Below, one piece after another: positions 1,976 to 31,794 of a DNA stretch of 32,000 nucleotides; position 1 is the first letter of the stretch, and each line of letters starts with the position of its first letter. The stretch is taken from positions 1,560,001-1,592,000 of the forward strand of contig NZ_CP047931.1 of assembly GCF_014280175.1 (NCBI RefSeq), written 5' to 3'. This DNA comes from Synechococcus sp. A15-28. GTDB lineage: Bacteria; Cyanobacteriota; Cyanobacteriia; PCC-6307; Cyanobiaceae. Made by a program: the position numbers and the translations under genes. Under the pieces are notes generated by a model that saw only the letters and a program-made list of their open reading frames with translations, was not told the DNA's origin and did no database searches.

Positions 1976-2440
1976 TCACGCAGCGGGCCTGTCCTGCCGG
2001 TCGCGATGAGCCTTGAGATCCGACATCGGGCGGTCCAGCCCCTCAAGGTGGGAGCGGATCCCCTTCAACTCATCGAGGATGGCACCCAGCATCTGCTGGG
2101 TAGCGGTGGACGGTGAGTTAAGGACCTCAACCGTGACCTCCTTAATACGGAGCACATCCTTGGCGAATCGTGCCACCTCATTGGGATGAAACAGCAGCGG
2201 ATCTTTTTGATCACTGCGATATTCAGGATTCAGCTTCCTGGGATTGAACGGGGGATTGAGATTGCGTGGATCGGTATTGGTGTAGCGATAAACCGAAGCT
2301 CTCGAACGATTCAGAGATTTCTGGACTTCGTCAATACCAACCAGGGCTTCGGCATCCGAGGAAGCCGCGGCCTGTTCGAGGGCAATTTCCACCGATGATT
2401 GAACGTGGGAAGACACAGATTCAACCGAGCGAGGAAACAT
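1976..2440 (-). CDS. Conserved hypothetical protein with a putative helix-turn-helix
   Basis: The ORF-track start at 2572 lies 14 nt from the divergent proS start. The internal ATG at 2440 (MFPRSVES...) is preferred. The segment GIDEVQKSLNRSRASVYRYTN reads as an HTH. Confidence 0.5.
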   Translation of the reverse strand: MFPRSVESVSSHVQSSVEIALEQAAASSDAEALVGIDEVQKSLNRSRASVYRYTNTDPRNLNPPFNPRKLNPEYRSDQKDPLLFHPNEVARFAKDVLRIKEVTVEVLNSPSTATQQMLGAILDELKGIRSHLEGLDRPMSDLKAHRDRQDRPAA

Positions 2441-2586
2441 GAGACGACCCTTGGACAGCCTGGACTGAGCGGACGGTAGCAGCTGAGACTCAGGTCGCAC
2501 AGTGGTTTTCGCAGGGGTCAGACAGTTATATGATCGGCATATTCCAGGATCAGTGATAGCTTCTCTGGCCATCTGAAAGTACGGCT

Positions 2587-4368
2587 ATGCGCGTCTCCCG
2601 CCTGATGCTGGTGACGCTGCGCGATGTGCCAGCCGAAGCCGAAATCAAGTCCCACCAGCTGCTGCTGCGTGGAGGTTTCATCCGCCGTGTGGGCTCCGGG
2701 ATCTACGCCTATCTGCCGATGATGTGGAAGGTGCTGCAGCGCATCACAACGATCATCCGAGAAGAGATGAATCGTGCCGGGGCACTGGAAACACTCCTGC
2801 CTCAGCTGCATCCTTCGGAGCTCTGGCAACGCAGTGGGCGTTGGCAGGGATATACCGCCGGCGAAGGAATCATGTTCCACCTGGAGGATCGCCAGGGGCG
2901 TGAGCTTGGTCTGGGGCCCACCCATGAAGAGGTGATCACCAGCCTTGCCGGCGAGCTGCTGCGTTCCTACCGACAGCTCCCTGTGAACCTGTACCAGGTT
3001 CAGACCAAGTTCCGGGATGAAATTCGCCCCCGTTTTGGCCTGATGCGGGGGCGTGAATTCATCATGAAAGACGCCTATTCCTTTCACGCCGACGAAGCGG
3101 ATCTGCAGGCGACCTACGCAGTCATGGACAGGGCCTACAAACGTATTTTCGAGCGCTGTGGCCTGAAAGCTGTGCCGGTGGATGCCGACAGCGGCGCCAT
3201 CGGTGGTGCCGCTTCGCAGGAATTCATGGTTACGGCGGAGGCCGGAGAGGATCTGCTTCTGATCAGCGACGACGGTGCCTACGCCGCCAACCAGGAAAAA
3301 GCGGTGTCACTCCCTGACGAGGTCACTCCCCTGAGCCCGGCTTCACTGAGCTGCCTCGAGACCCCTGGGCAGACCTCGATCGACTCCCTCTGCTCCGCCC
3401 AGGGCTGGCAGCCGGGGCAGCTGCTGAAGGTGCTGCTGCTGCTGGCCGTTCTGGAGGATGGCCAACAGCAACCTGTGCTGGTGTCCCTCCGGGGAGATCA
3501 GGACCTGAATGAGGTGAAGCTGGTCAATGCGTTGAGTCGCCACTTGGAACAGGGCGTCCTCGACTGCCGCCCGATCACCGCTGACGATCTTCAACGTCAG
3601 GGGGTCACCGGCATTCCCTTCGGTTACATCGGTCCGGATCTGGCCGATGCGGTGCTGAGCGCTGCCTCGAGCTGGACGAAGACCTTTCTTCGCCTGACGG
3701 ACACCACAGCGGCGGCGTTGGACCAGTTCCACTGCGGCGCCAACGTCATGGACCAGCACCGCAGCCACTGCAGCTGGAATGAACTCGGTGGTGTCCCGGA
3801 GGACAAAGACCTGCGCAAGGCCCGTGCGGGTGAGCGTTGCGTTCACAACCCCGACGCCCGGCTCCAGGAGAAGAGGGGCATCGAGGTGGGCCACATCTTT
3901 CAACTGGGGCGCAAATACTCCCAGGCCCTCGACAGCTGCTTCACCAACGAGAACGGCCGTGATGAACCGTTCTGGATGGGTTGCTACGGCATCGGTGTGT
4001 CACGCCTCGCCCAGGCAGCCGTGGAGCAGCACCACGACGATGCCGGTATCCGCTGGCCCGCTGCGATCGCTCCCTATGAAGCCATTGTGGTGATCGCCAA
4101 TATCCAGGATCAGGGGCAGACCGATCTCGGTGAATCCGTCTACACAACACTGCAGCAGGCGGGCATCGATGTGTTGCTGGATGATCGTAAGGAACGCGCC
4201 GGCGTGAAGTTCAAAGATGCCGATCTGATCGGCATCCCCTGGAGGGTGGTCATCGGCCGTGAAGCCGCCGAGGGCAGCGTGGAATTGGTTCAACGATCCA
4301 ACCGCGAGATGCGGAAACTGCCCCACGGCGAAGCGATCGACGAACTGATCAAGGCCCTGCGCCCCTAA
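2587..4368 (+). CDS. proS: Prolyl-tRNA synthetase (class II, bacterial type with insertion/editing domain)
   Basis: 593 aa. MRVSRLMLVTLRD start, FRDEIRPRFGLMRGREFIMKDAYSF (motif 2 region), GCYGIGVSRL (motif 3 region). Confidence 0.95.
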   Translation: MRVSRLMLVTLRDVPAEAEIKSHQLLLRGGFIRRVGSGIYAYLPMMWKVLQRITTIIREEMNRAGALETLLPQLHPSELWQRSGRWQGYTAGEGIMFHLEDRQGRELGLGPTHEEVITSLAGELLRSYRQLPVNLYQVQTKFRDEIRPRFGLMRGREFIMKDAYSFHADEADLQATYAVMDRAYKRIFERCGLKAVPVDADSGAIGGAASQEFMVTAEAGEDLLLISDDGAYAANQEKAVSLPDEVTPLSPASLSCLETPGQTSIDSLCSAQGWQPGQLLKVLLLLAVLEDGQQQPVLVSLRGDQDLNEVKLVNALSRHLEQGVLDCRPITADDLQRQGVTGIPFGYIGPDLADAVLSAASSWTKTFLRLTDTTAAALDQFHCGANVMDQHRSHCSWNELGGVPEDKDLRKARAGERCVHNPDARLQEKRGIEVGHIFQLGRKYSQALDSCFTNENGRDEPFWMGCYGIGVSRLAQAAVEQHHDDAGIRWPAAIAPYEAIVVIANIQDQGQTDLGESVYTTLQQAGIDVLLDDRKERAGVKFKDADLIGIPWRVVIGREAAEGSVELVQRSNREMRKLPHGEAIDELIKALRP

Positions 4369-4393
4369 AGTCCCGCTCAATATTCCCCAACCC

Positions 4394-4819
4394 ATGATCT
4401 CCGCCCTGGCCCGACTGATCCAGCAACTGTCCAGGGCAGCGGTCGCCCTGGTCCTCGGCCTGAGTCTCCTGCTGACCGCCTGCAGCGGTGATGCCGAGGC
4501 TCGTCTCACCGGCGATTACGTCGAAGACACCGTTGCCGTGGCCCATAACCTGCGCGAGGTCATCGATCTGCCGCAGGATGCCGCCAACAGGGGTGACGCG
4601 GAATCCGAGGCCAGGGCATTGATCAACGATTACATGTCCCGCTACCGGCCCCAACCCCGGGTGAACGGCCTCAGCTCCTTCACCACGATGCAGACCGCCT
4701 TGAACTCCCTGGCCGGTCATTACGCCTCCTACGCCAACCGCCCCCTGCCGGAGGCCCTGCACGACCGCATCGCCAAGGAACTGGGCAAAGCTGAGAAGGC
4801 CGCTGTCCGCGGAAGCTGA
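4394..4819 (+). CDS. psb27: Photosystem II assembly lipoprotein Psb27
   Basis: 141 aa. Lipobox LLLTAC; TGDYVEDT, LINDYMSRYRP and SFTTMQTALNSLAGHY are characteristic of Psb27. Confidence 0.9.
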   Translation: MISALARLIQQLSRAAVALVLGLSLLLTACSGDAEARLTGDYVEDTVAVAHNLREVIDLPQDAANRGDAESEARALINDYMSRYRPQPRVNGLSSFTTMQTALNSLAGHYASYANRPLPEALHDRIAKELGKAEKAAVRGS

Positions 4820-4829
4820 GCAACGGTTT

Positions 4830-4856
4830 GCGGTGAGGTCTTTGACAGACCACCGC
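4830..4856 (+). terminator. Imperfect hairpin downstream of psb27 (possible terminator, no U-tail)
   Basis: GCGGTG(AG)GTCT-ttgac-AGACCACCGC starts 11 nt after the psb27 stop. Confidence 0.3.
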
Positions 4857-4905
4857 TGGTTCCGACATAGTCGCAGATTGTGCAGATTCGCGGCTTCGGG
4901 CCGCA

Positions 4906-6225
4906 GTGTCATTGGCCAACGTTGTCGTCATCGGAGCTCAATGGGGTGACGAAGGAAAGGGAAAGATCACCGATCTCCTCAGTCGCTCCGCCGATGTGGT
5001 GGTGCGCTATCAGGGCGGTGTGAATGCAGGGCACACGATCGTCGTTGACGACCGTGTGCTGAAGCTTCATCTGATCCCTTCCGGAATCCTTTACCCGGAC
5101 ACGATCTGCCTGATCGGATCCGGCACTGTCGTGGATCCGAAGGTGATGCTCGGTGAGCTGGACATGCTCATCGCCAATGACATCGATATCTCAGGGTTGC
5201 AGCTGGCCTCCACGGCCCACGTGACCATGCCTTACCACTGCCTGCTGGATCAGGCGATGGAGAAGCAACGCGGTGACCGAAGGATCGGCACCACGGGTCG
5301 GGGAATCGGTCCCACCTACGCCGATAAATCCCAGCGCAGCGGGATCCGTGTGATCGACCTGCTGGATGAAGCGCGGCTGAGGGAACGCCTCGAGGGACCT
5401 CTCCGGGAGAAGAATCAACTGCTGGAGACGATCTACGGCGTCGACCCCCTCGATCCCGAGGCGGTAATCAAGGAGTACTTGGGCTACGGCAAGCGCTTGG
5501 CTCCCCATGTGGTGGAGTGCACCCAGGCCATTCATCAGGCGGCCCGCGACCGCAAGAACATTCTGTTCGAAGGTGCCCAGGGCACTCTGCTGGACCTCGA
5601 TCACGGCACCTATCCCTACGTCACCTCCTCTAATCCAGTATCCGGTGGGGCCTGCATCGGTGCCGGTGTGGGACCCACCCTGATCGACCGGGTGATTGGC
5701 GTGGCCAAGGCTTACACCACACGCGTCGGCGAAGGGCCTTTCCCGACGGAACTCAGCGGCCGACTCAACGACCAGCTCACCGAGCGAGGCGGCGAATTCG
5801 GAACCACCACGGGACGACGACGTCGCTGCGGTTGGTTCGACGGCGTGATCGGCCGCTATGCGGTTCAGGTGAACGGCCTGGACTGCCTTGCCGTCACCAA
5901 GCTGGATGTGCTGGATGAATTGGATGCCATCCAGGTGTGCGTCGCCTACGAGCTGGACGGGGAACGCATCGAGCATTTCCCCAGCAGCGCCGAGGATTTT
6001 GCCCGCTGCACCCCGATCTTCGAGACCCTTCCCGGCTGGCAGTGTTCCACCGAGGACTGCCGCAAGCTCGAGGATCTCCCGGAGGCGGCCATGGCCTACC
6101 TGCGCTTCCTCGCTGACCTGATGGAGGTGCCGATTGCAATCGTCTCCCTCGGTGCCAGCCGCGACCAGACCATCGTTGTGGAGGACCCGATCCACGGGCC
6201 CAAACGGGCGCTGCTCAGCGCCTGA
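4906..6225 (+). CDS. purA: Adenylosuccinate synthetase
   Basis: 439 aa, GTG start. [15 protein letters not shown]-loop, [30 protein letters not shown]. Confidence 0.95.
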
Positions 6226-6263
6226 TCCGCCGGAAGCCATACTGCGGGCTCCGTGTTCCGTCC

Positions 6264-7271
6264 GTGATGACCCGCTTCCCCGGCAGCTGCAGCCTCGATG
6301 TGGTGGGCATCGGTAACGCCATCGTGGATGTTTTGGTGCAGACCGATGACAGCTTTCTGACGGAACACGGCCTCCAGAAGGGCGGAATGGCCCTGATCGA
6401 TGAACAACAGGCTGAGACCCTGTACACCGCCAGTGGTCCCGGACTGGAAACCTCCGGAGGTTCCGTGGCCAACACCATGGTGGGAATTGCCCAGCTCGGT
6501 GGGCGAGCCGGCTTCATCGGTCGGGTGCGCAATGACCAGCTCGGCGGCATCTTCAGCCACGACATCCGTGCGGTCGGAGCCCGTTTCGACACACCTGCGG
6601 CCACCACGGGAGCCACCACGGCCCGCTGCCTGATCTACGTCACCCCCGACGCGGAACGAACCATGTGCACGTTCCTCGGGGCCTCCACCCAGTTGGAGCC
6701 CGATGATCTCGACCTCTCGATGGTGCGCGACACCAAGGTGCTGTACCTGGAGGGCTACCTCTGGGACAGCCCGGCCGCCAAGCGTGCCTTCATCGCCGCG
6801 GCGGAGGTATGCCGTGAGGCCGGTGGCCAGGTCGCCCTTTCGCTCTCAGACGGCTTCTGCGTCGACCGCCATCGCGATAGCTTCCTCGAGCTGGTGAATG
6901 GTCATGTGGATGTTCTGTTCGCCAATGAGGTGGAGATCAAGTCCCTGTACGAAACCGATGATTTCGAAACCGCCCTGGAGAAGGTGGGCGGTTGCTGCTC
7001 TGTGATTGCCATCACCCGTGGAGGGGAGGGATCTGTGGTGCTCAGCGGCGACCAACGCTGGAACATCGGCATCTTCGGCCTGGGGGAGCTGGTGGACACC
7101 ACAGGGGCCGGAGACCTCTACGCCGGCGGATTTCTGCACGGTTACACCCAGGGAGAATCCATGGAGCGCTGTGGTCAGCTGGGGGCCCTCTGCGCCGGGC
7201 AGATCGTCACTCAGCTGGGGGCCCGTCCCCAGGTATCCCTGCGGGATCTGGCTGCGGCCCATCTGAACTGA
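6264..7271 (+). CDS. PfkB-family carbohydrate/adenosine kinase
   Basis: 335 aa. DVVGIGNAIVDVL N-terminus and the DTTGAGDLYAGGFL PfkB signature. Confidence 0.85.
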   Translation: MMTRFPGSCSLDVVGIGNAIVDVLVQTDDSFLTEHGLQKGGMALIDEQQAETLYTASGPGLETSGGSVANTMVGIAQLGGRAGFIGRVRNDQLGGIFSHDIRAVGARFDTPAATTGATTARCLIYVTPDAERTMCTFLGASTQLEPDDLDLSMVRDTKVLYLEGYLWDSPAAKRAFIAAAEVCREAGGQVALSLSDGFCVDRHRDSFLELVNGHVDVLFANEVEIKSLYETDDFETALEKVGGCCSVIAITRGGEGSVVLSGDQRWNIGIFGLGELVDTTGAGDLYAGGFLHGYTQGESMERCGQLGALCAGQIVTQLGARPQVSLRDLAAAHLN

Positions 7272-21666: not shown

Positions 21667-22092
21667 TCAACTGGAGGAGGTCTCCAGGCGACAACGCTGA
21701 CGCTCATCGCAAAGAGTGCGCAGATCGGGACGGCGTGTGAGTTGCAGCCGACGGTCGGCCCAGACGCCGTACAACCAGTTCACAAGGCCGGAAAGAACGG
21801 GCCAGCGGGTGGGTGCGTACAACCATCCCAGCCCGATCAATCGATAGGCCTCACGGAAGACAGCGACATCGCGCAGCACCTCTCCGGCTCCGGTGATGGC
21901 ATGGATGCGACCCATGGCTTCTTCGTAGCTGATGCCCTGGTGGGACTCCGGGTCGTAGTCCATGGCATCGATGTCGATGAAGCCCAGGGAACCCAGGCGA
22001 TCCCTACCCCTGAGGAAGGTGACTTCCCGCACGCAAAGCGGGCAGCCCCCGTCAAAGAGCACGGTGAGCTCAGGAGAAGCAGACCTCGTCAT
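21667..22092 (-). CDS. DCC-family thiol-disulfide oxidoreductase (DUF393-like)
   Basis: LFDGGCPLCVREV motif. Preferred start is the ATG at 22092, which forms an ATGA overlap with the stop of the upstream Cys-rich ORF. The longest ORF runs to 22335. Confidence 0.75.
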   Translation of the reverse strand: MTRSASPELTVLFDGGCPLCVREVTFLRGRDRLGSLGFIDIDAMDYDPESHQGISYEEAMGRIHAITGAGEVLRDVAVFREAYRLIGLGWLYAPTRWPVLSGLVNWLYGVWADRRLQLTRRPDLRTLCDERQRCRLETSSS

Positions 22093-22379
22093 TCCCGACG
22101 GCAGTAACCGCCACCCACGTTGATCCATTGCGGTGGGCAATCGCGACCCTGACGGGGCTGCAGCTGCTCGACGCGACGCCCAAAACTGCAGCAGCGGCCG
22201 TTGCGGGTGTAGGCATAGCCGATGGGACAGTCGTCGCTGAGCCTTGGCACCACACGCTGGCCAGCGGCAGGCACTGGCTCGAGCAGCAGCAGACCAAAAA
22301 CCGTGATGAGTCGCAGCGAAGTGATCGTGGAACAACCGGCAGCGTGCGCCACAAACTTAAGGAGATCAGCGTTCGGCAT
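22089..22379 (-). CDS. Small secreted cysteine-rich protein (hypothetical)
   Basis: 96 aa. Signal-like LRLITVFGLLLL followed by 6 Cys (DDCPIGY, GRCCSFG, RDCPPQW, GYCRRE). Its stop overlaps the DCC gene start (ATGA at 22089-22092). A GTG alternative start lies 9 codons in. Confidence 0.5.
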   Translation of the reverse strand: MPNADLLKFVAHAAGCSTITSLRLITVFGLLLLEPVPAAGQRVVPRLSDDCPIGYAYTRNGRCCSFGRRVEQLQPRQGRDCPPQWINVGGGYCRRE

Positions 22380-22866: not shown

Positions 22867-25284
22867 GTGACCACCACCAGGCCAGTAGATGGCCCCGCAG
22901 GGACCATCTACGAGTTCTCCCCACACCAACGAGTATTTCGCGATCCAGAGACCTCTGAGCTGCTCACAGAGCACGCTGACACCACCAAAAAGGGTTTTGG
23001 TAAGACCAGGTTCCTCAAAGGTCCAGGCCCTAATGGTTGGCCGATCTTCAATTTTGAAGGCGTCTCCACCTATCTGGAGGAGTTACGGAGCCTTGGAGAC
23101 CCTGACCCTGACTTTCGATGTGTCTACGAATTTCCTGATCTCATCGACGCACAGGCTGCGGTTGAGATCCGGCAGCAAAACGCCTTCTGCCAGCCGCACC
23201 ATGCTCAATCCCATCAGGAAATGGTGCTGCGATACCAAGACCTCAGATATCGAGGTGCATGGTGCTGTTATTACATCACTCCTGATCGTCCCGATGAGGA
23301 AGAAAAGGCTCTCCGCCATCAAAAGGCGGCAATGGAAGGCGGGCTGCTGCTTCTGATCGTTAAAAGCCACCAAGAGCCGTTATTTGTGGTTAAGGCAGAC
23401 AAATGCCGGTGGTTAGGCGTTGATCAAAACCCATTTTTCAGAGGTCAGATCGGACGGATCTACCCCCGCGATCGCGGCCGATACATGACCGAGCTGTATC
23501 ACCTCTGCGACTATTCCCTGCTTAGCGATCCTGAGTTTCAGCAGGCCTCTCTACTTGATGACGATGACCGCGAAACGCTCCTGCTGAGGGGTGCATCTCA
23601 CCCTGAGCAAACGGATGAATACTGGCTTCGCAAACGCTGGGCTGAGCCAACAGTCGCCTACTGGAACACTGAGCGCTTACTACAACGCGGCAATTTCCTG
23701 ACAGAGGCTCTTAGCACCCAAATCAGGGCCAATCACTCTGGCCCTTCGAAGTGGGACATCTTCACTGGCACTCATTGGCAGGAGCAGAACACCCACGATG
23801 TGGTGAACGCTCTCCAAGAGGAGTTTTACGTTCGCAACGAGTGGAGCAGTCGCGATCTTCGTGACCTCAGCAGCGACCGTTCACAACTACGTCGTGGCGT
23901 TGCCAGCGCTATTCCCAAGCCGAGCCGCAGGTTGCTGCCATTCCTGAACACCTGTCTCGATCTCGACAGCAGGGAGTGCATCAAGCACTCACCAAACAAT
24001 GGCAACCGTTTTGTTCTGCGCCTGAACTACGAGCCAGGAGATCGCGAACCGAAAAAGATCAAAGCCTTCCTTCTGGATCGTCTTGGTGATCCTGAGCTGG
24101 TTGAGATGTATCGGGCCTTTGTTTGGCATTGCCTGACTGGACGAAGCCTGAAGGCATTTCTGGAGATCACTGGCCCAGCCCACACCGGCAAAACAGTGCT
24201 GACGAATCTGATCATTGCCATCGTCGGCGTCATCAACACCGTCAGTTGTGATCTGAGCCAGCTCGAAGATTCCAAGAGTCGTTTTGAGAGCCATCGCCTC
24301 TCTGGCAAAAAGCTGGCTGTCTTCAGCGAATCACAGGACTACAAGGGCACAGGGGAAATGCTCAAAGCCCTCACAGGTCGCGACCGCATCCGCGCAGAGA
24401 AAAAGAACAGCAGCGAAGACTGTGACTTCACCTATGGGGGTGTTGTCGTCCTCACCGGCAATAGCTCGGTGAATTTCAAGGATGCCTCTGCTGCAATCAA
24501 CAATCGGCGCCGCAGCTTGTTCGTTGAAAAGGTCATCGACTTCAAGGATGAGCGGGTGATGTGCGAAGACGACGGAGAAGGCAACTGGCGCGGTGAGCTG
24601 GTGCCAGAGCTGTCAACGATGGTGAATTGGGTTCTGGATATGGATCCGGCTGATGCCATTAGGGCAATGAGCCGCAACCTGATATCAGAGACTCGGCGTA
24701 ATGCAGCCAAGCAATCACTGCTCGACTCCAACCCTCTCGCTGCGTGGGCAAACGAGCGCTTGGTTTACGACTCCATGCTCAAGTCGGACGGCAAGCCATT
24801 GCATGCCCAAGGCGTTGGAAACCTCAAATCCGATCCTCAAACCCACCTCCTAACCAACTACCGGAGCTGGCTTGAGGCCAATGAAACTGGCGAGGCTCTC
24901 ACCACCAAGACGTTCAAAAGGGCGCTGGTGGAGATGCTGCAAGGCATCGGCATCCCATTGCCACCAGGACCGCTGGATAAGGGTCAGTACCGCATCGATG
25001 GCAAAGGCAGCGTGGTGCCGTTCCTCCGCTTTCGTCGTGCTGACGATGCTGCTGACCATCCAGGGGTGATTGATGCAGCTTTCAACGTGCAAACGGTTCG
25101 CGAACGATTCGCAAACGCCAAGACCCCAGTAGCAAACGGATCAAACGGATCAAACGGTTCTGAAGAGGTTTCTGCTCATAGAGGTTCAGAACTTTTCCAA
25201 AACACCCACCAAGTGGGGGGAACATATGCCTGGGACCAGGAATCTGACTTTTCTCCAGACACTGGTGATGGTGAAGGCGGCTAA
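22867..25284 (+). CDS. P4/D5-family primase-helicase (SF3 NTPase) with an unassigned ~400-aa N-terminal region
   Basis: 805 aa, GTG start. Walker A ITGPAHTGKT (24172-24195), Walker B-like KKLAVFSES, LKALTGRDRIRAEKK...VVVLTGNS, as in the phage/plasmid primase P4-family C-terminal domain. Confidence 0.85.
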   Translation: MTTTRPVDGPAGTIYEFSPHQRVFRDPETSELLTEHADTTKKGFGKTRFLKGPGPNGWPIFNFEGVSTYLEELRSLGDPDPDFRCVYEFPDLIDAQAAVEIRQQNAFCQPHHAQSHQEMVLRYQDLRYRGAWCCYYITPDRPDEEEKALRHQKAAMEGGLLLLIVKSHQEPLFVVKADKCRWLGVDQNPFFRGQIGRIYPRDRGRYMTELYHLCDYSLLSDPEFQQASLLDDDDRETLLLRGASHPEQTDEYWLRKRWAEPTVAYWNTERLLQRGNFLTEALSTQIRANHSGPSKWDIFTGTHWQEQNTHDVVNALQEEFYVRNEWSSRDLRDLSSDRSQLRRGVASAIPKPSRRLLPFLNTCLDLDSRECIKHSPNNGNRFVLRLNYEPGDREPKKIKAFLLDRLGDPELVEMYRAFVWHCLTGRSLKAFLEITGPAHTGKTVLTNLIIAIVGVINTVSCDLSQLEDSKSRFESHRLSGKKLAVFSESQDYKGTGEMLKALTGRDRIRAEKKNSSEDCDFTYGGVVVLTGNSSVNFKDASAAINNRRRSLFVEKVIDFKDERVMCEDDGEGNWRGELVPELSTMVNWVLDMDPADAIRAMSRNLISETRRNAAKQSLLDSNPLAAWANERLVYDSMLKSDGKPLHAQGVGNLKSDPQTHLLTNYRSWLEANETGEALTTKTFKRALVEMLQGIGIPLPPGPLDKGQYRIDGKGSVVPFLRFRRADDAADHPGVIDAAFNVQTVRERFANAKTPVANGSNGSNGSEEVSAHRGSELFQNTHQVGGTYAWDQESDFSPDTGDGEGG
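25090..25157 (+). repeat. Five copies of CAAACG[G/C], the last three as a 9-bp tandem, inside the 3' end of the primase-helicase gene
   Basis: Copies start at 25090, 25112 (variant), 25133, 25142 and 25151. The tandem encodes NGSNGSNGS. Confidence 0.8.
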
Positions 25285-25354: not shown

Positions 25355-25470
25355 GCTCAGCTCATGACGTGGAGGCTGACTAATGCAACATCAGTTGCCT
25401 TGGTTATTCGCAGCAAGGACAAGCCATTTTTTTGCTGCATGCTCAGGATGCAGACATCTTGCATTTATTC

Positions 25471-27528
25471 ATGGCTGCCGCCCTGCGCTGCCATCTGCTG
25501 ATTGGACCGCCAGCCAGCGGGAAGACCACCATTGCGACGCTTCTTGCGCCGCTGCTGGATGCGGAGCTGCTCTCCACGGATCGGATCCGTGATGAACTCT
25601 ATGGCGACCCGATGATCCAGGGCCACTGGCATGAGGTGGAGGATCGGCTACACGCGGAGATTCAGGCGAGCGTGGCGGCAGGGCGATCGGTGTTGATCGA
25701 TGCCACCCATGCTCAGAGGCCCTGGCGTTTGGCGCTCACCCAGCGGCTGGAGTTGGACAGGCCGGTGGAGTGGATCGGTTGGTGGATGCGCACCCCACTT
25801 GAGGTGTGCCTGGAGTGGAACAAGCGGCGCGAGCGCCAGGTGCCCGAGCTGGTGGTCCAGCAATTTGCAGCAGCCTTGAACGACCGCGACTTTCAACCCT
25901 CTCGCAGTGAAGGCTTTGCGGTTCTGGTGGATTACAACCCCGCTGCAGACGGTGATCCAGCCAAGGAGCTTGCTGCAGAAATCTCGCGGCTCAATAAGCG
26001 CATCTCAGCTGCCCGCAATCGCGAGCAGGCCAAGGAGCTCCACTGCTACTCACGATTGTTGGACCTGGAGCGACTGCTCCATCTGCTGCAACTTCTCAGC
26101 CGCTATCCGGGTCTTAGCGCTGGCGATGTCACCACCCGAGCAGAGCTGGAGGCAATCTGCAATCCACTGCCGGAAGGGGCGATGGCCCAACGGGCTGCGG
26201 CCTACCTCTCTCGCCTGCGCGGCGAGTGCTATTGCGATGTGGATGCCCTGGAGGCAGATCTCCTTTGGCTCCAGAGCCAGGGTTTTCTCGATGCCGCGCC
26301 AACGCAACAACCCATTGAGCCACCCCCTGCCCCAGAAAACCTGGGTGGGCTGAACCTGGGCGGCTGGCCTCCGATGGCCGACCGAAGCGTGTTTATTCGG
26401 GTCTTCAGCCTGCTGCGCTATCTGTTGCATCACCCCTTTAATTGCGAGAAGGGAGTGCGACTGCAGGAGCACCTGATCAGCCAGCTCGGCGGTGTCTACA
26501 TGCCAGGTGAAGCCGGCACCCTGCGCAAGGACGTGGAGCGCATACTCACCCCCTATGGCTTTCGCACCCGCAACGACAATGTGCGCCACGGCTACGGCCT
26601 AGGTACTGCGGTGCTCTCGGCAGCGCGGCTGCGGGAAGTGCACCAGGTGGTGAGCCAGGCAGTCTCCCGTCTTGGTGATCCCACAGCTCAGGACTTGCTC
26701 GCAGAGCTCGATGAGCGACTTCGGTGGGGAGGTGTACTGAGGGAGCACGAGCCACCGGTAAGGGTCTTTGCGAATCGTTCGATCGTGCACCCCGATCTGG
26801 TGCGCCGAGATTCTCTTGCGGTACCAGCACAGGCAGAAAAACTTGAGGCTGCAATCTCATTGCGTCAGAGGGTGTTGTTGGAGCGCTTCTCCGATGCGGC
26901 CACATTCGGAGAGGAATCAAGAGAACCGATCCACGTATGGCCCATACAACTGCTCTTTCACAACATCGGTTGGTATTTGGCTTTTGAGGATGACGCTGTC
27001 GGCTACGAACGGGGCCTGATCCGTACAGAACGTTTGGACCGGCTGGCACTACGTCAGGTTGAAAGCGGCTTCCAACGCACGCCGGAGCAACGTGTTGCTG
27101 GAGTCCTTCGGCTTACTCGTCTGATGGAACTCAGCGGTGGCATCTACCTCGGCAAGGACGCTGCTTCGCAAGAACAACTAAGCACTGCACAACCAGACGA
27201 ACTAGCCAAACTACTAATCACCGTCCGCTTTCGTTGTACATCTCGGGCTTACAATTTCTTGAGAGAAGGTTTGCAGCGATATCCACTCAATCAGATACGA
27301 ATGTCGAAGCCGTTAACCAGTGATCAATGGTGCCACAGATCTAAAGCACCGCTTGTACTGACTCCATTTCCAGACGATAGCCACCCTTACCCTATGGAAC
27401 TAGACCTCCCGCCATGGACAGTTGCACGAGATGTCGACTTTCGCCGCTGGATTCTTGGCTGGGGCTCTGAAATTATTGTTGAGACTCCCACAGGCTTTGC
27501 TCAGGAAATTCGCTTGCAAGTGCAATGA
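25471..27528 (+). CDS. Fusion protein: P-loop kinase (AAA_33/PNK-like), HTH region and WYL domain
   Basis: The track start at 25432 is a TTG, so the ATG at 25471 is preferred. LLIGPPASGKTT (25504-25530) plus LIDATHAQRPWR kinase-like core. ERLLHLLQLLSRYPGLSAGDV is HTH-like. IHVWPIQLLFHNIGWYLAFED...IRTERLDRL is the WYL signature (GWYLAF at 26968-26985). Confidence 0.8.
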   Translation: MAAALRCHLLIGPPASGKTTIATLLAPLLDAELLSTDRIRDELYGDPMIQGHWHEVEDRLHAEIQASVAAGRSVLIDATHAQRPWRLALTQRLELDRPVEWIGWWMRTPLEVCLEWNKRRERQVPELVVQQFAAALNDRDFQPSRSEGFAVLVDYNPAADGDPAKELAAEISRLNKRISAARNREQAKELHCYSRLLDLERLLHLLQLLSRYPGLSAGDVTTRAELEAICNPLPEGAMAQRAAAYLSRLRGECYCDVDALEADLLWLQSQGFLDAAPTQQPIEPPPAPENLGGLNLGGWPPMADRSVFIRVFSLLRYLLHHPFNCEKGVRLQEHLISQLGGVYMPGEAGTLRKDVERILTPYGFRTRNDNVRHGYGLGTAVLSAARLREVHQVVSQAVSRLGDPTAQDLLAELDERLRWGGVLREHEPPVRVFANRSIVHPDLVRRDSLAVPAQAEKLEAAISLRQRVLLERFSDAATFGEESREPIHVWPIQLLFHNIGWYLAFEDDAVGYERGLIRTERLDRLALRQVESGFQRTPEQRVAGVLRLTRLMELSGGIYLGKDAASQEQLSTAQPDELAKLLITVRFRCTSRAYNFLREGLQRYPLNQIRMSKPLTSDQWCHRSKAPLVLTPFPDDSHPYPMELDLPPWTVARDVDFRRWILGWGSEIIVETPTGFAQEIRLQVQ

Positions 27529-27569: not shown

Positions 27570-28712
27570 TTAAACGAAACGATTCAAGACCTGGTCGATG
27601 GGCTTGGCAAACTCTTTCTCTTGTTCCTGCAGAGCGAAGCTGCTGTTGGCTTGCAGGATACGTGAATTGAAACCCGGCAGACCTTTTACCTCAGCGTAAC
27701 TCTTGCAACCTGATCTGCAAATCTCAGCAATTATGGGCTTTTGCAGGATATTGTGCCAGTGCTCAAATCCTTGCACCTGCGAAGACATAGACTTGTAAAT
27801 TTGACCTCTTAATTCGAGAAGCTTACTAAATATTTGATCTTTGCTGAGCGGCGCTCCAATTGTCTTCGTAGAACTACTCTTTTGAATGCTGTCACTTTCA
27901 CGAATTAACTGCTCTTGACCATGTCCAGCCATAGAAGAATTCACTACGGCTGCCATGACTTCTCTCCTGGCTTGCTCTACACTTACGAGCAACTCTTCTT
28001 TTATTTCCTGAATCTGATCAAGCATTCGATCTTCGCTCTCTTCGATTACTCCTGACAATATTTCCATATGGATCCTGCCTTCGGCGTCGCCTCTATCGTC
28101 TTCAGATGTTGATTCAGTTATAGGATGTGGCTTTAAATTGCAAAGTTCTCGGTACCGATTTAGCTCTTCTTGTGAAGCGGTAATTATCCGAAAGCTGAAC
28201 CTCGAAACGTCTTCACTGTTAGACAGGGCGATCGTTTCAACGAGAGGCGCCAGTAACTTGCTGAGCTCAAATACTCTTAGGGCGATTGCTGCATACAAAT
28301 TGTTGAATTGCTCTTCTGCCTCACCTTGCGGCACGAGGTGGCCGGCCGAGTCCCTTGCAGCCCGCAGAGAAATGGCTAAGCCTCTAAATTCCGAAAAATA
28401 AAATGCAAGCGCCTTCCGCTTATGAACCTCTAGACCTAGGCGATTCTCCCTCCCTGCTGAGCGTATATTTTTAATTAAATTAGTGGTACGCTCGTTGCAA
28501 TTTTTGTCTTCATAGTATATCTCCCACCATCCTGCAGTGCTGCTCAGATCAAGGTCTTTGTTGGACGTGACGGCCTCTAGGATGTATTGAATATCATCAA
28601 GCTTGTCAGCGTATACGGTGTCTGTCTTTAAGCAGATATAACTTAAAAAACAAAGCCACTTATAAACTTCCCCAATCTGTCGTCCGAGGATAGGATTAAT
28701 GATGTGATTCAT
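27570..28712 (-). CDS. Hypothetical 380-aa protein with an N-terminal HEPN-type Rx4H motif, acidic coiled middle and possible HRDC/HhH-like C-terminus
   Basis: Clean ORF in markedly AT-richer DNA. LRAARDSAGH (R120-H125, nt 28338-28355) is followed by an EAEEQFNNLYAAIALRVFEL helix, as in DUF4145/Abi-type HEPN domains. The C-terminal similarity to HRDC is weak and by eye only. Confidence 0.7.
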   Translation of the reverse strand: MNHIINPILGRQIGEVYKWLCFLSYICLKTDTVYADKLDDIQYILEAVTSNKDLDLSSTAGWWEIYYEDKNCNERTTNLIKNIRSAGRENRLGLEVHKRKALAFYFSEFRGLAISLRAARDSAGHLVPQGEAEEQFNNLYAAIALRVFELSKLLAPLVETIALSNSEDVSRFSFRIITASQEELNRYRELCNLKPHPITESTSEDDRGDAEGRIHMEILSGVIEESEDRMLDQIQEIKEELLVSVEQARREVMAAVVNSSMAGHGQEQLIRESDSIQKSSSTKTIGAPLSKDQIFSKLLELRGQIYKSMSSQVQGFEHWHNILQKPIIAEICRSGCKSYAEVKGLPGFNSRILQANSSFALQEQEKEFAKPIDQVLNRFV

Positions 28713-28774
28713 TGTGCAAATGCGGCGTCGGATGAGATGAGATTGCCTTGCATGTTGTTTATGGTCATGGATTG

Positions 28775-29461
28775 CTATTGTGACTCAATCCCTTTCAGGT
28801 TGAAACTCTTGTCTGTATCTGATTGAAGTGTTTTTGCTGCACTACAAATGCTTCCTGCGAGCAACCAGGCCTGCGCTCCTGGAATTACAGACATAGCAAT
28901 GCTTATAGCGAGCGATGCTGACATTGCTTGTGTCGCAGCGCAGCCTGCATCCTTTAGGGATTGAATAAAACAACCTCGACTATTCAGGGGTGAATTCTTC
29001 ATGCCGCACTCTTGATCACGAAGTATGCTCCAAGAAATTGTTAGCAACACTGCAAGCGCTCCTGCTTCAAGGCAATGTTTGGTAATGTCCGTAGCCACCC
29101 CGGGGGCATGCAGCGCATCAATTCCTCCGTCTAATTGGGCTCGCCCTATGTCGACCGCGCTTATTGGATCGGCGCCTCGACTTCTGTTCCAGCTGGCGGT
29201 TTCAAACTGCCAGCCCTGCTCAGCTGTTCCCCCGTGAGCCTGAGGCCACCAATGGCTGAGGTCCTTGTCAGATAGCCAGCTACGGATCGCTTCTTCAGGT
29301 TTTTGACTGCGTAGTAGTAGCTCTGGCAGCTGGCCCTGTAGTTCGGCGCCATGGGCAGATAAGCGCTCTTTGAGAACCGCTACGGAGCTTGGATCTACAA
29401 ACTGCTCGCACAGGCGCGTGATGAAGCCTGAGGTGAGTCCAGTAGAAAATGGCCTGTTCAT
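28775..29461 (-). CDS. Hypothetical membrane protein (soluble N-terminal half, 2-3 C-terminal TM helices)
   Basis: 228 aa. Hydrophobic GALAVLLTISWSIL and SASLAISIAMSVIPGAQAWLLAGSICSAA. Its start forms an ATGA overlap with the stop of the upstream ORF. Confidence 0.7.
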   Translation of the reverse strand: MNRPFSTGLTSGFITRLCEQFVDPSSVAVLKERLSAHGAELQGQLPELLLRSQKPEEAIRSWLSDKDLSHWWPQAHGGTAEQGWQFETASWNRSRGADPISAVDIGRAQLDGGIDALHAPGVATDITKHCLEAGALAVLLTISWSILRDQECGMKNSPLNSRGCFIQSLKDAGCAATQAMSASLAISIAMSVIPGAQAWLLAGSICSAAKTLQSDTDKSFNLKGIESQ

Positions 29462-29970
29462 GCGGATTGCCTGCTAAGGGCTACTCCACCTAGTAGATGA
29501 TTCAGGTTGACCCCCGCATCAAACGCGGCACTGTGAAGATCCGAGCGTTGTTCCTCGCTGAGTCCGTCCCAGAAGGCATAGGCCAGGTCGATCGATGCCT
29601 TACCGAGGCCAACTACACCGATCAGGCTGAGAGGAAAACCCAACCAGGGGAACACCAGAAGCACCACGCTGAAAACCGCACTTACGGCTGCTCCCTGCTT
29701 AGTGGTTTCCCAGACGCTCGCCACAATTGCCTGAACTTGGGTTCTCCGATCTATCTCGCCGCGCTTGCGCATGGCTTCAGTTCGGAGACCCGTTAGCAAG
29801 GCTTGGTAGATGGCGAACACGAGCATTCCGCCAACGGTGCTTTCGCCAACGAATTCACCACCGGTCAGCGTGCCACGGTTCCCGTTGAGATCGATGGAGG
29901 CCAAGCCGGCCATTGGTGCAATCTCCCAGCCAGCGCGTGGAATCCGGTAGGGGTCGCGTTCTCGGGACAT
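29458..29970 (-). CDS. Hypothetical membrane protein (about 3 TM helices)
   Basis: 170 aa. Hydrophobic VGGMLVFAIYQALLTGL and AAVSAVFSVVLLVFPWLGFPLSLIGVVGLG. No family recognised. Confidence 0.7.
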   Translation of the reverse strand: MSRERDPYRIPRAGWEIAPMAGLASIDLNGNRGTLTGGEFVGESTVGGMLVFAIYQALLTGLRTEAMRKRGEIDRRTQVQAIVASVWETTKQGAAVSAVFSVVLLVFPWLGFPLSLIGVVGLGKASIDLAYAFWDGLSEEQRSDLHSAAFDAGVNLNHLLGGVALSRQSA

Positions 29971-30076: not shown

Positions 30077-30838
30077 TCAGAGCCAAGAAACCGTGTCTTG
30101 AGTTGGTTCTTCGCTAATGCGGTGAGGGCAGATTTCGGCAAGGCGGCAGAAGCGGCACTCGTTAGTAGATGGGGATGGCTCAGGTTGTAGCCCAACTGTG
30201 AGGCTCAACAAATCTGACAACTGTTGTTGGAATGCCACCCCGGCTTCGGGTGCAGGGATTTCAACTCGATCTCCATTCGCATACACCAATTCACCGCAGG
30301 GTGGATGTTGGACGCCCTCCAGTGCATTGGCATATGGCGCTAAGGCCATATACGTAAGGACTTGGGCACGATCTTTGCCGCGTGGGCGACCTGTTTTTGC
30401 ATCCGAGATAACCCCTGGCATGGAGTCTGTCTCGCTGACCACCACATCACACTGCCCATGGATGGTGACACCGTCCTTGCTACGTAGGCGTAAGGCGTTC
30501 TCCTGCTCAACATGAACGATTCGTCCCTTGTCTGAGTGGGTCCGAGCAACGGCTTGGAGTAGCCGTTCATGCTTGGTCACCCAATCACCCGGGACTCCTG
30601 AAGATTTGGGCGTGCAGTAATTGACCTGAAGGAAGAGATTGAGAAGACAATGCCTTTCGCCTGCCAAGTACGGAGCCAGCCAAGTGACATGGCAATAGCG
30701 CTCTTGACGTTGTTCCAGACTTAATACTTGGGACTTCAATTTTCTGTTTTCGAGGGCCAGGTCAAGATGCCAGCGACTTGTGAAGTCGGAGCTTCTTCTC
30801 GTGCGAACAACGGATTGAGGTCGAGGAATATGCGCCAT
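30077..30838 (-). CDS. Cas4-like PD-(D/E)XK nuclease with a C-terminal Fe-S cysteine cluster
   Basis: 253 aa. GQCDVVVSE...ISDAKTG (D...DxK), RAQVLTYM (QxxxY) and CRFCRLAEIC (CX2CX5C, nt 30128-30157), as in Cas4/AddB-type nucleases. Confidence 0.75.
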   Translation of the reverse strand: MAHIPRPQSVVRTRRSSDFTSRWHLDLALENRKLKSQVLSLEQRQERYCHVTWLAPYLAGERHCLLNLFLQVNYCTPKSSGVPGDWVTKHERLLQAVARTHSDKGRIVHVEQENALRLRSKDGVTIHGQCDVVVSETDSMPGVISDAKTGRPRGKDRAQVLTYMALAPYANALEGVQHPPCGELVYANGDRVEIPAPEAGVAFQQQLSDLLSLTVGLQPEPSPSTNECRFCRLAEICPHRISEEPTQDTVSWL

Positions 30839-31155: not shown

Positions 31156-31794
31156 GTGCGCGAGGGCGGGTCTCCGCAGTTGATGGCAATGGTGCTTGAG
31201 CACCTGGCCGATCAACGAGAGGCTCTACAGCGGGAGCGCGATGGCTGGAGCTTTGTGTGGTCGGGACCTGAGCCTGCCCATGCCAAGACAGCTGACACTT
31301 TCGCCACAGTGGATCAGCTCATCCAACAGGCACAGACGAGCCTCCTGATCGCGACTTACAACATCGGCCTCTCCAATCAGTTTCAAGAGCTGTTGGAGTC
31401 AATCGCGGACCGGCTAGGCAGCGGCCAGCTTCAGCGGGTGGAGTTGTTCTTTCATCCGATTCAGATCGCCGATCGCCTGGGCTCCGATCCACTGCGAATG
31501 ATCCGGCAGTGGTTCGACAAGGAGGTGTGGCCTTGGCCGGCCAAGCCACTCATATACGTCGATCAAAGACTGTCTTCAGGGGCTGCTGAGCGCTGCTGTC
31601 AGCACGCCAAGGTTGTTGTCGCTGATGCCGACACAGAACAATCGAGCGCTCTTGTCACTAGTGCCAACTTCAGCGAGGCGGCGCAGCGCCACAACTTCGA
31701 AGCCGGTTGGCTCGTTCGAGAACCGTGGCGCGCTGATCAGGTGGCCAAGCACTTCCGCCAGATGGTTGCGGAGGGGTTGTTCCTCCAGGTCTGA
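31156..31794 (+). CDS. Single-HKD phospholipase D-family protein (Nuc-like nuclease family)
   Basis: 212 aa, GTG start (alternative ATG at 31183). HAKVVVAD (31603-31626) followed by LVTSANFS matches HxK(x)4D...(G/T)SxN. Confidence 0.8.
   Translation: MREGGSPQLMAMVLEHLADQREALQRERDGWSFVWSGPEPAHAKTADTFATVDQLIQQAQTSLLIATYNIGLSNQFQELLESIADRLGSGQLQRVELFFHPIQIADRLGSDPLRMIRQWFDKEVWPWPAKPLIYVDQRLSSGAAERCCQHAKVVVADADTEQSSALVTSANFSEAAQRHNFEAGWLVREPWRADQVAKHFRQMVAEGLFLQV

Follow-up and report, generated by a model that had tools for sequence, protein, structure and literature searches.

A HEPN-like candidate defence gene beside a membrane-protein pair in a Synechococcus defence island

Near the end of a 32,000-nucleotide (nt) stretch of DNA from Synechococcus sp. 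A15-28 (the window, to which positions given without a locus name refer), three adjacent genes on the minus strand raise the question of whether they act together as one antiphage system. These genes, designated here A (170 amino acids (aa), a membrane protein; 29458..29970), B (228 aa; 28775..29461) and C (380 aa; 27570..28712), had been proposed in an earlier note to constitute a single undescribed abortive-infection cassette made of two membrane proteins and a HEPN-motif protein. The three open reading frames (ORFs), the ATGA shared by the A stop and the B start (29461-29458) and the gap of 62 nt between B and C were exact as described there.

The answer reached here is a composite one. C would be a stand-alone candidate of the HEPN abortive-infection type, next to A-B, which is a separate picocyanobacterial membrane-protein pair; judged from sequences and structural models, this reading is given a probability of about one half. 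The C family is sparse and previously unannotated, and elsewhere its members are found as single genes in defence or mobile-element neighbourhoods. A, B and C gave no match in Pfam, PADLOC, NCBIfam, PHROGs or the PDB sequences, and no family of PADLOC-DB v2 was matched by any of the three at E <= 1. In these respects the earlier note, which recognised no family for A and B and expected no named system, was right.

The HEPN-like domain of gene C

The product of gene C matches, at 100% identity, a hypothetical protein from Synechococcus sp. A15-28. In a full-length AlphaFold model (predicted local distance difference test (pLDDT) 74), C is a soluble, all-helical protein composed of three parts. 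The N-terminal domain (aa 1-195; 28128..28712, minus strand) is predicted to be a four-helix bundle (AlphaFold2 model of aa 1-200, pLDDT 88.3, predicted template modelling score 0.88), the helices spanning residues 7-29, 32-51, 96-124 and 130-164. Next comes a long acidic helix at about aa 210-262 (27927..28085, minus strand), seen in the full-length model and probably a coiled coil, as the earlier note had supposed for this region; it is poorly conserved and is flanked by low-confidence or disordered linkers. The third part is a helical C-terminal domain at about aa 291-376 (27585..27842, minus strand; LR..IY....GFEHWHNILQKPII...), modelled with a pLDDT of 89-96 and common to all distant relatives, with the consensus L..LR..I...M....F..WHNILQ.PI.... 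An assignment of this last domain to HRDC was considered and dropped, as the resemblance was by eye only: there was no Pfam match at E <= 1, nothing relevant in the PDB profile search and no HRDC among the Foldseek matches listed.

The HEPN core consists of four helices forming two alpha-hairpins in an up-down bundle; its hallmarks are an insert between helices 2 and 3 and an Rx4H-type motif that ends helix 3, and a second conserved acidic residue, often within an Ex3[KR] motif, is located in helix 2 (PMC3710099). In the model of C, the four-helix core is likewise arranged as two alpha-hairpins. An insert at aa 52-95, the least conserved part of the N-domain, separates helices 2 and 3 and is predicted to contain a short helix, a beta-hairpin (65-75) and another helix. 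The RDSAGH motif, read directly from the sequence at aa 120-125 (28338..28355, minus strand), places R120 and H125 at the point where modelled helix 3 ends (aa 124). The proposal that this is a HEPN-type motif in the appropriate helical context was thus borne out by the model and by the conservation of the two residues, R120 and H125 being invariant in 21 close homologues of C.

Furthermore, the motif persists far beyond the close family. An exhaustive profile search with C against 1.84 billion representatives recovered only 52 proteins, mostly recruited through the C-terminal domain, and a hidden Markov model of that domain matched 49 distant proteins. Among the full-length distant relatives, 29 of 36 carry R[NHD]xxxH at aa 90-175, in 26 cases as RNxxxH, whereas 1000 residue shuffles gave 0.55 on average and 4 at most. 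When the close family was aligned with five relatives at 18-21% identity, the invariant columns were L28, D40, D55, E108, R120 and H125; in an alignment of 22 N-domains at 11-22% identity, only R120 and H125 were invariant. D40, located in the helix at 32-51 and not part of an Ex3[KR] motif, is kept in all of 25 sequences, the most distant at 18% identity, but varies in the wider, less reliable 22-sequence alignment. The clusters of the C family mostly contain 1-3 members, which makes it a sparse family.

From these features of sequence and predicted fold, it was concluded that C is HEPN-like, its membership of the HEPN superfamily being probable but unproven, and that it is probably a new relative, without prior annotation, of the HEPN-type RNA-cutting defence proteins.

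Several observations weigh against this reading. C and 41 distant relatives gave no usable HEPN match in Pfam, PADLOC, NCBIfam or PHROGs; in PADLOC the 41 relatives produced isolated chance-level matches only, and HEPN_Swt1 was matched weakly (E = 0.0089) by one of them only. PDB sequence-profile searches with the alignments of C, of its N-domain and of its C-terminal domain returned no match. The Foldseek comparison proposed in the earlier note was run on C, with the full-length and N-domain models against the PDB and the N-domain model against BFVD: no match fell below E = 0.1, the best values being 0.17 to 0.7 with no HEPN protein among them, and the best match was She2p, an RNA-binding helical protein (E 0.17, PDB). 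Comparison by hhalign of the C N-domain with three Csm6 HEPN domains from related loci was negative, a result that is uninformative and expected given HEPN divergence. Because four-helix bundles are widespread, topology and motif together have to carry the argument from fold. In addition, the defence context of the C family was assessed by visual inspection of some ten neighbourhoods and not by statistical enrichment. Finally, the co-divergence of B and C and a membrane-protein pair beside a C homologue on contig L101, both described below, hint at a real membrane-protein coupling that the composite reading underplays.

Linkage and separation of the three genes

A, B and C are real genes under purifying selection, since each has many homologues (22 clusters for C, 88 for B and more than 300 for A) and the pairwise ratio of nonsynonymous to synonymous substitution rates (dN/dS) is 0.10-0.20 across the three. 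A contains an invariant N-terminal motif, RDPxRIPxAGxExAPxAGLAS, and its homologue clusters span 60-92% identity. B, with a dN/dS of 0.17-0.20, is composed of a conserved soluble N-terminal domain (aa ~16-116) followed by moderately hydrophobic, poorly conserved C-terminal helices (aa 129-206). Both proteins had been described as multi-pass hydrophobic. This description is accurate for a strong hydrophobic hairpin in A (aa 89-127, Kyte-Doolittle peak 2.3) and overstated for the remainder, as A has only a weak segment at aa 44-62 and B reaches only moderate peaks of 1.5-1.7, all in its C-terminal 100 aa. A and B share a weak likeness in the hairpin by hhalign (E = 9e-4, probability 23%). Wherever B is present, it overlaps or abuts A; as read from the sequence, A and B are a translationally coupled pair.

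Four other identities for these genes were tried and rejected. A is not a DUF697 or YcjF-like protein (PF05128), as it has no Pfam match and hhalign against the DUF697 protein of L101 gave a probability of 1.4%; nor are A and B divergent copies of the L101 membrane pair. A holin role was dismissed, since the lysozyme genes of related loci lie 3-5 kb off and are not adjacent, and A is mostly solitary. As for a phage origin, A, B and C are absent from the INPHARED phages, A also from IMG/VR, and C and two of its distant relatives, P0234 and P0262, the only proteins searched there, are absent from the PLSDB plasmids.

That A, B and C, possibly with the gene for a kinase-WYL protein convergent with C, form one multi-gene abortive-infection system, in which the membrane pair would sense infection or be a second effector and would control a HEPN-like RNase, is in our view unlikely. 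In its favour, the order A-B-C recurs in six other distinct loci, namely L001 (with L002 and L003), L004, L005 (a short contig with a partial B), L006 (Synechococcus lacustris), L007 and L097 (with L098). A and B are coupled, a kinase-WYL gene adjoins most A-B loci, and the setting is a defence island. The tight unit described in the earlier note holds for A-B, which overlap at every trio locus, and not for B-C, which are separated by gaps ranging from 62 to about 320 nt; this variable spacing is also an argument against a single system.

The strongest sign of a common history is found between B and C. Across the six trio loci, pairwise B-B and C-C identities are 91/91, 81/80, 77/76 and 50/49 (Spearman 0.86), so that the two genes co-diverge almost one to one. 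A identities are 78-94%, and A and kinase-WYL share a slower pattern, unlike B and C. Since B-B and C-C identities match pair by pair and the pattern of A and kinase-WYL differs, B-C behaves as a fast-evolving, jointly inherited unit placed between the conserved flanks A and kinase-WYL and, on this picture, recombining between them.

The base composition follows the same unit, which also favours a single system: the tract of low guanine-plus-cytosine content (GC) comprises C and the 3' end of B. GC is 0.45 in C, 0.47 in the 3' half of B, 0.57 in the 5' half of B, 0.58 in A and 0.60 in the whole window; the 62-nt B-C spacer (28713..28774, minus strand) is as low as C, and within B the GC of third codon positions is 0.55 in the 5' half versus 0.37 in the 3' half. 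The very low GC attributed to the whole cassette is therefore confined to C and the 3' half of B. The further claim that this AT-richness marks the DNA as clearly foreign was an over-reading. In the other trio loci, GC of C is 0.46-0.51 against backgrounds of 0.60-0.68, and the C copies are mutually 49-91% identical; because C remains at 0.45-0.51 in every examined locus despite this range of identity, its low GC is a stable trait and no sign of recent arrival. Within B, GC declines from the 5' to the 3' half in five of six distinct trio loci, a drop that is not seen in C-less loci. As the internal GC step is confined to C-bearing loci, it suggests a recombination boundary inside B. Neither a consensus promoter nor a terminator was found in the B-C spacer, and scans of the cassette for promoters, terminators and repeats gave nothing above chance.

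Against a single system, A-B persists without C in L008, L013, L069 and L086-91 (at least seven loci). In L086 and L088/L089 (Synechococcus sp. LA31), the B stop and the end of the convergent kinase-WYL gene are 15-26 nt apart, and in L087 an unrelated 73-aa ORF occupies the place of C; a degraded C was searched for in the L087 spacer between B and kinase-WYL and none was found. The B proteins of C-less L087 and L088 are 84-85% identical to those of the trio loci L004 and L001, and L001 and L004 are themselves far apart (66% identity in B, 70% in C). From these relations between sequences, C would be older than the L001/L004 split and would have been lost at least twice independently, which also speaks against one system. 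In L013, a 205-aa ORF at the position of C overlaps the B stop. The C-less A-B loci often carry an AlkB-like 2OG-Fe(II) oxygenase gene with a 291-aa partner (L013 11184-14369; L069 11450-12965; L086 8948-10370; L090 8236-14572), and L013 and L090 also have Csm6-HEPN and RAMP genes (type III CRISPR).

Conversely, C occurs without A-B in L092, L101 and L104-108. A 40%-identical homologue without A-B follows DUF488 and DuOB genes, and 46%-identical homologues, again without A-B, are present in contigs of 40% GC near a DO-GTPase2 gene. Four independent assemblies of the 40%-GC organism (L094, L095, L096, L100) share a contig break 300-450 nt upstream of their C homologue; the stretch upstream of it in these contigs (first 300-460 nt) has no long ORF, tRNA or Rfam match. 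The four distant C relatives with readable contigs are all single genes without A and B. One has DarT-Macro (DarTG) immediately upstream, one (Halomonas sp. H5) has PLDc_2, DUF2971 and AbiTii downstream, one has DndB, PAPS_reduct and SNF2 nearby, and one is adjacent to an IS605 transposase.

L101 (= L103), a 66.8-kb IMG/VR contig resembling a cellular island or a prophage, points the other way. At 2115-7191 it encodes two DUF488 proteins, DuOB, an overlapping membrane pair (a 178-aa DUF697 protein and one of 286 aa from no recognised family, both unrelated to A and B) and then a C homologue with 37% identity, downstream of which is a Rad52-family gene. An unrelated membrane pair thus precedes a C homologue, and this arrangement, together with the long B-C linkage, is the best argument for a functional link of C-type proteins with membrane partners.

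The best argument against an obligatory system is that A, and the wider C family, are for the most part solitary. When one genome per species was scanned, A was present in 123 species of Cyanobium and Synechococcus-type picocyanobacteria. Within the best 80 loci of these 123 species, B was found in 5 and C in 2, and A was solitary in 72, with no B for at least 1 kb (mostly 10 kb) downstream. A is also far more conserved than B or C. Thus, the three homologues do co-localise in six other distinct loci, as expected in the earlier note for one three-gene system, but the presence of one does not imply that of the others: the A, B and C families are nested, not coextensive.

The island and its border

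From position 1 to about 22,400, the window contains core genes (proS, purA, argB, priA, a sigma factor, hemC and an M32 peptidase), the last of them a DCC1-like gene at 21667-22335. An island starts at about 22.5 kb, with falling GC, and its genes follow in the order P4-type primase, kinase-WYL-WCX, C, B, A, Cas4-like PD-(D/E)XK nuclease and DISARM DrmC. The primase/helicase (DUF5906; 22867..25284, plus strand), recognised by family scans and placed where GC declines, is the first island gene and marks the island edge. Neither a tRNA nor an integrase gene was found within the window. The kinase-WYL gene (25432..27528, plus strand; 698 aa) is convergent with C, and its product combines a polynucleotide-kinase-like P-loop kinase (AAA_33) with WYL and WCX domains, the kinase part matching bacter_Pnkp (1.6e-7) and phrog_505 (7e-10). 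On the other side, a Cas4-like PD-(D/E)XK nuclease gene (30077..30838, minus strand; Pfam PDDEXK_1 1.1e-8, PADLOC Cas4 2.4e-10) lies 106 nt upstream of A on the same strand. It is followed by the gene of DISARM DrmC, a PLD-family nuclease (31156..31794, plus strand; PADLOC PDLC02613 E = 1.8e-135, Pfam PLDc_2), which is 1.2 kb from A on the opposite strand and whose match begins at model position 50; the remaining DISARM genes probably lie past the window end (32000). With DrmC, the Cas4-like gene, kinase-WYL and the P4-type primase, the setting is a mobile defence island, and the WYL, Cas4-like and PLD neighbours had been correctly recognised in the earlier note.

These neighbours differ in how far they accompany A and B. 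A kinase-WYL gene adjoins the A-B(-C) block in L004, L006, L007, L086-89 and L097-99. The Cas4-like gene about 100 nt upstream of A recurs only in L006 (6694-7359, S. lacustris Tous, 73% identity); A-B loci other than the window and L006 have a divergent 144-157-aa gene in its position. In L088/L089, L001, L004, L086 and L087, the backbone around A-B consists of an RNase H-like superfamily-1 helicase of about 1170 aa, a 148-aa gene, A, B, C where present, and kinase-WYL, beyond which come a 184-aa gene, a 350-aa gene and a VWA protein of 425 aa. MazEF, SNF2 and DUF4011-helicase genes are found near this backbone.

The flanks of solitary A are variable, and A is partly syntenic inside sublineages. 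Fifteen loci have a highly conserved cyAbrB-like gene (80-98% identity) at a distance of 3-7 kb from A; in L022 (65-9940), from Synechococcus sp. BO 8801, the gene of a 3291-aa cadherin/Big_9 (Ig) adhesin ends 25-60 nt before a solitary A. The recurrence of the cyAbrB-like gene and the variable flanks, including this giant adhesin, suggest that A borders a chromosomal hotspot.

This position is central to another explanation, in which A-B would be ordinary physiological membrane proteins bordering an integration hotspot and C a selfish toxin or addiction gene of the island without an antiphage role. The high conservation of A (mean column identity of 70%; dN/dS about 0.1), its partial synteny near the cyAbrB-like gene and its changing flanks would suit such a role for A-B, and the P4-type primase of the island and the sparseness of C-family genes would suit a selfish C. 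However, an antitoxin-like cognate partner of C is not evident, relatives of C adjoin bona fide defence genes and not replication or partition genes, and the absence from the phage and plasmid collections searched gives no sign of plasmid addiction. We consider this explanation, too, to have a low probability.

The kinase-WYL gene deserves separate consideration, WYL proteins being regulators that sense ligands and control defence loci (PMC4012209). Because the gene is convergent with the cassette, the two have no promoter region in common. Kinase-WYL may regulate the locus, or may instead act on 5'-OH RNA ends, a suggestion based on its likeness to the Pnkp kinase domain. A, B, C and kinase-WYL could in principle constitute a four-part abortive-infection module, in which A-B would detect envelope or injection events and release or activate C, and kinase-WYL would sense RNA fragments or a nucleotide signal and either regulate the locus or re-phosphorylate 5'-OH ends, making the arrest reversible. 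Such a module seems improbable to us; if it were true, L101 would make a membrane duo with a C-type HEPN protein a general, modular design.

Proposed action, known relatives and meaning

On the composite reading, C would dimerise or oligomerise through its coiled coil, and the site formed by R120 and H125 would be a metal-independent RNase that cuts cellular or phage RNA once a trigger, possibly phage-derived, arrives. HEPN RNases are metal-independent and leave 2',3'-cyclic phosphate ends (PMC3710099). Cutting of RNA by C would arrest growth, in the manner of an abortive-infection protein or toxin, while the role of the C-terminal domain would be to bind nucleic acid or to detect the trigger. 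In the lineage studied here, the pair A-B may tether, localise, gate or modulate C, or may act independently at the membrane; the C family elsewhere would need no A-B. We infer the RNase activity, the defence role and the interplay of A and B with C, the defence role from genomic context and motif only. That C is not a nuclease at all, its Arg and His serving binding or structure in a coiled-coil nucleic-acid-binding or scaffolding protein such as an island regulator, would agree with the lack of a statistical match to any HEPN, with She2p as the best weak Foldseek match and with the C-terminal domain, not the N-domain, being the most conserved part of the family, but is very doubtful given that only R and H survive at 11-22% identity, in the canonical R[NDH]xxxH form and structural position, as is typical of catalytic residues.

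The closest known kind to C is that of the stand-alone HEPN abortive-infection proteins and ribotoxins (AbiD/F, AbiJ, AbiU2, AbiV, RloC/PrrC-type and Swt1-like; PMC3710099). The predicted N-domain of C resembles them in being an all-alpha bundle of four helices, in which an insert separates helices 2 and 3 and an invariant R-[D/N]-x3-H is placed at the end of helix 3. D40 in helix 2, kept in the close family and five relatives, may correspond to their conserved acidic residue, and the C family likewise consists of rapidly diverging single genes scattered in defence islands. Unlike them, C has no profile or structure match, joins its HEPN-like domain to an acidic coiled coil and a C-terminal domain of about 90 aa in an architecture not found in Pfam, NCBIfam or PADLOC, and shows a lineage-specific linkage to two orphan membrane proteins. 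With the HEPN-MNT toxin-antitoxin systems of types II and VII, C has in common a putative HEPN RNase toxin in mobile or defence contexts, but neither a minimal nucleotidyltransferase (MNT) nor a recognisable antitoxin was found beside C in the window or in related loci.

Effectors paired with membrane proteins are known from the transmembrane effectors of CBASS or type III CRISPR and from Zorya-like membrane anchors. The resemblance to these systems lies in the small multi-pass membrane proteins next to a putative nuclease in an island; the difference is that A and B match none of 5027 PADLOC models, that A is mostly solitary and that the cassette has no cyclase-like signalling enzyme. With DISARM only the neighbourhood is shared, as A, B and C match no Drm model and the other A-B(-C) loci are without DrmC. 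As for regulation, kinase-WYL resembles the BrxR/CapW-like WYL regulators (PMC4012209) in having WYL and WCX domains and in accompanying A-B in most loci, but it differs from them in its size of about 700 aa and its N-terminal polynucleotide-kinase-like P-loop domain.

A HEPN-like gene in a defence island will not surprise a specialist, and the claim of a three-gene system is weakened by the distribution of its parts. Should C be inert, the island would simply contain three further genes for conserved hypothetical proteins. Picocyanobacteria of the sea and of fresh water are among the major primary producers and are heavily exposed to phages, and to our knowledge few defences acting inside their cells have been described. 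If C does act as a HEPN RNase, it would represent a new, unannotated branch of the superfamily with an unusual architecture, a branch that is also found in Halomonas and in many uncultured bacteria, beside DarTG, Dnd-like and Abi genes.

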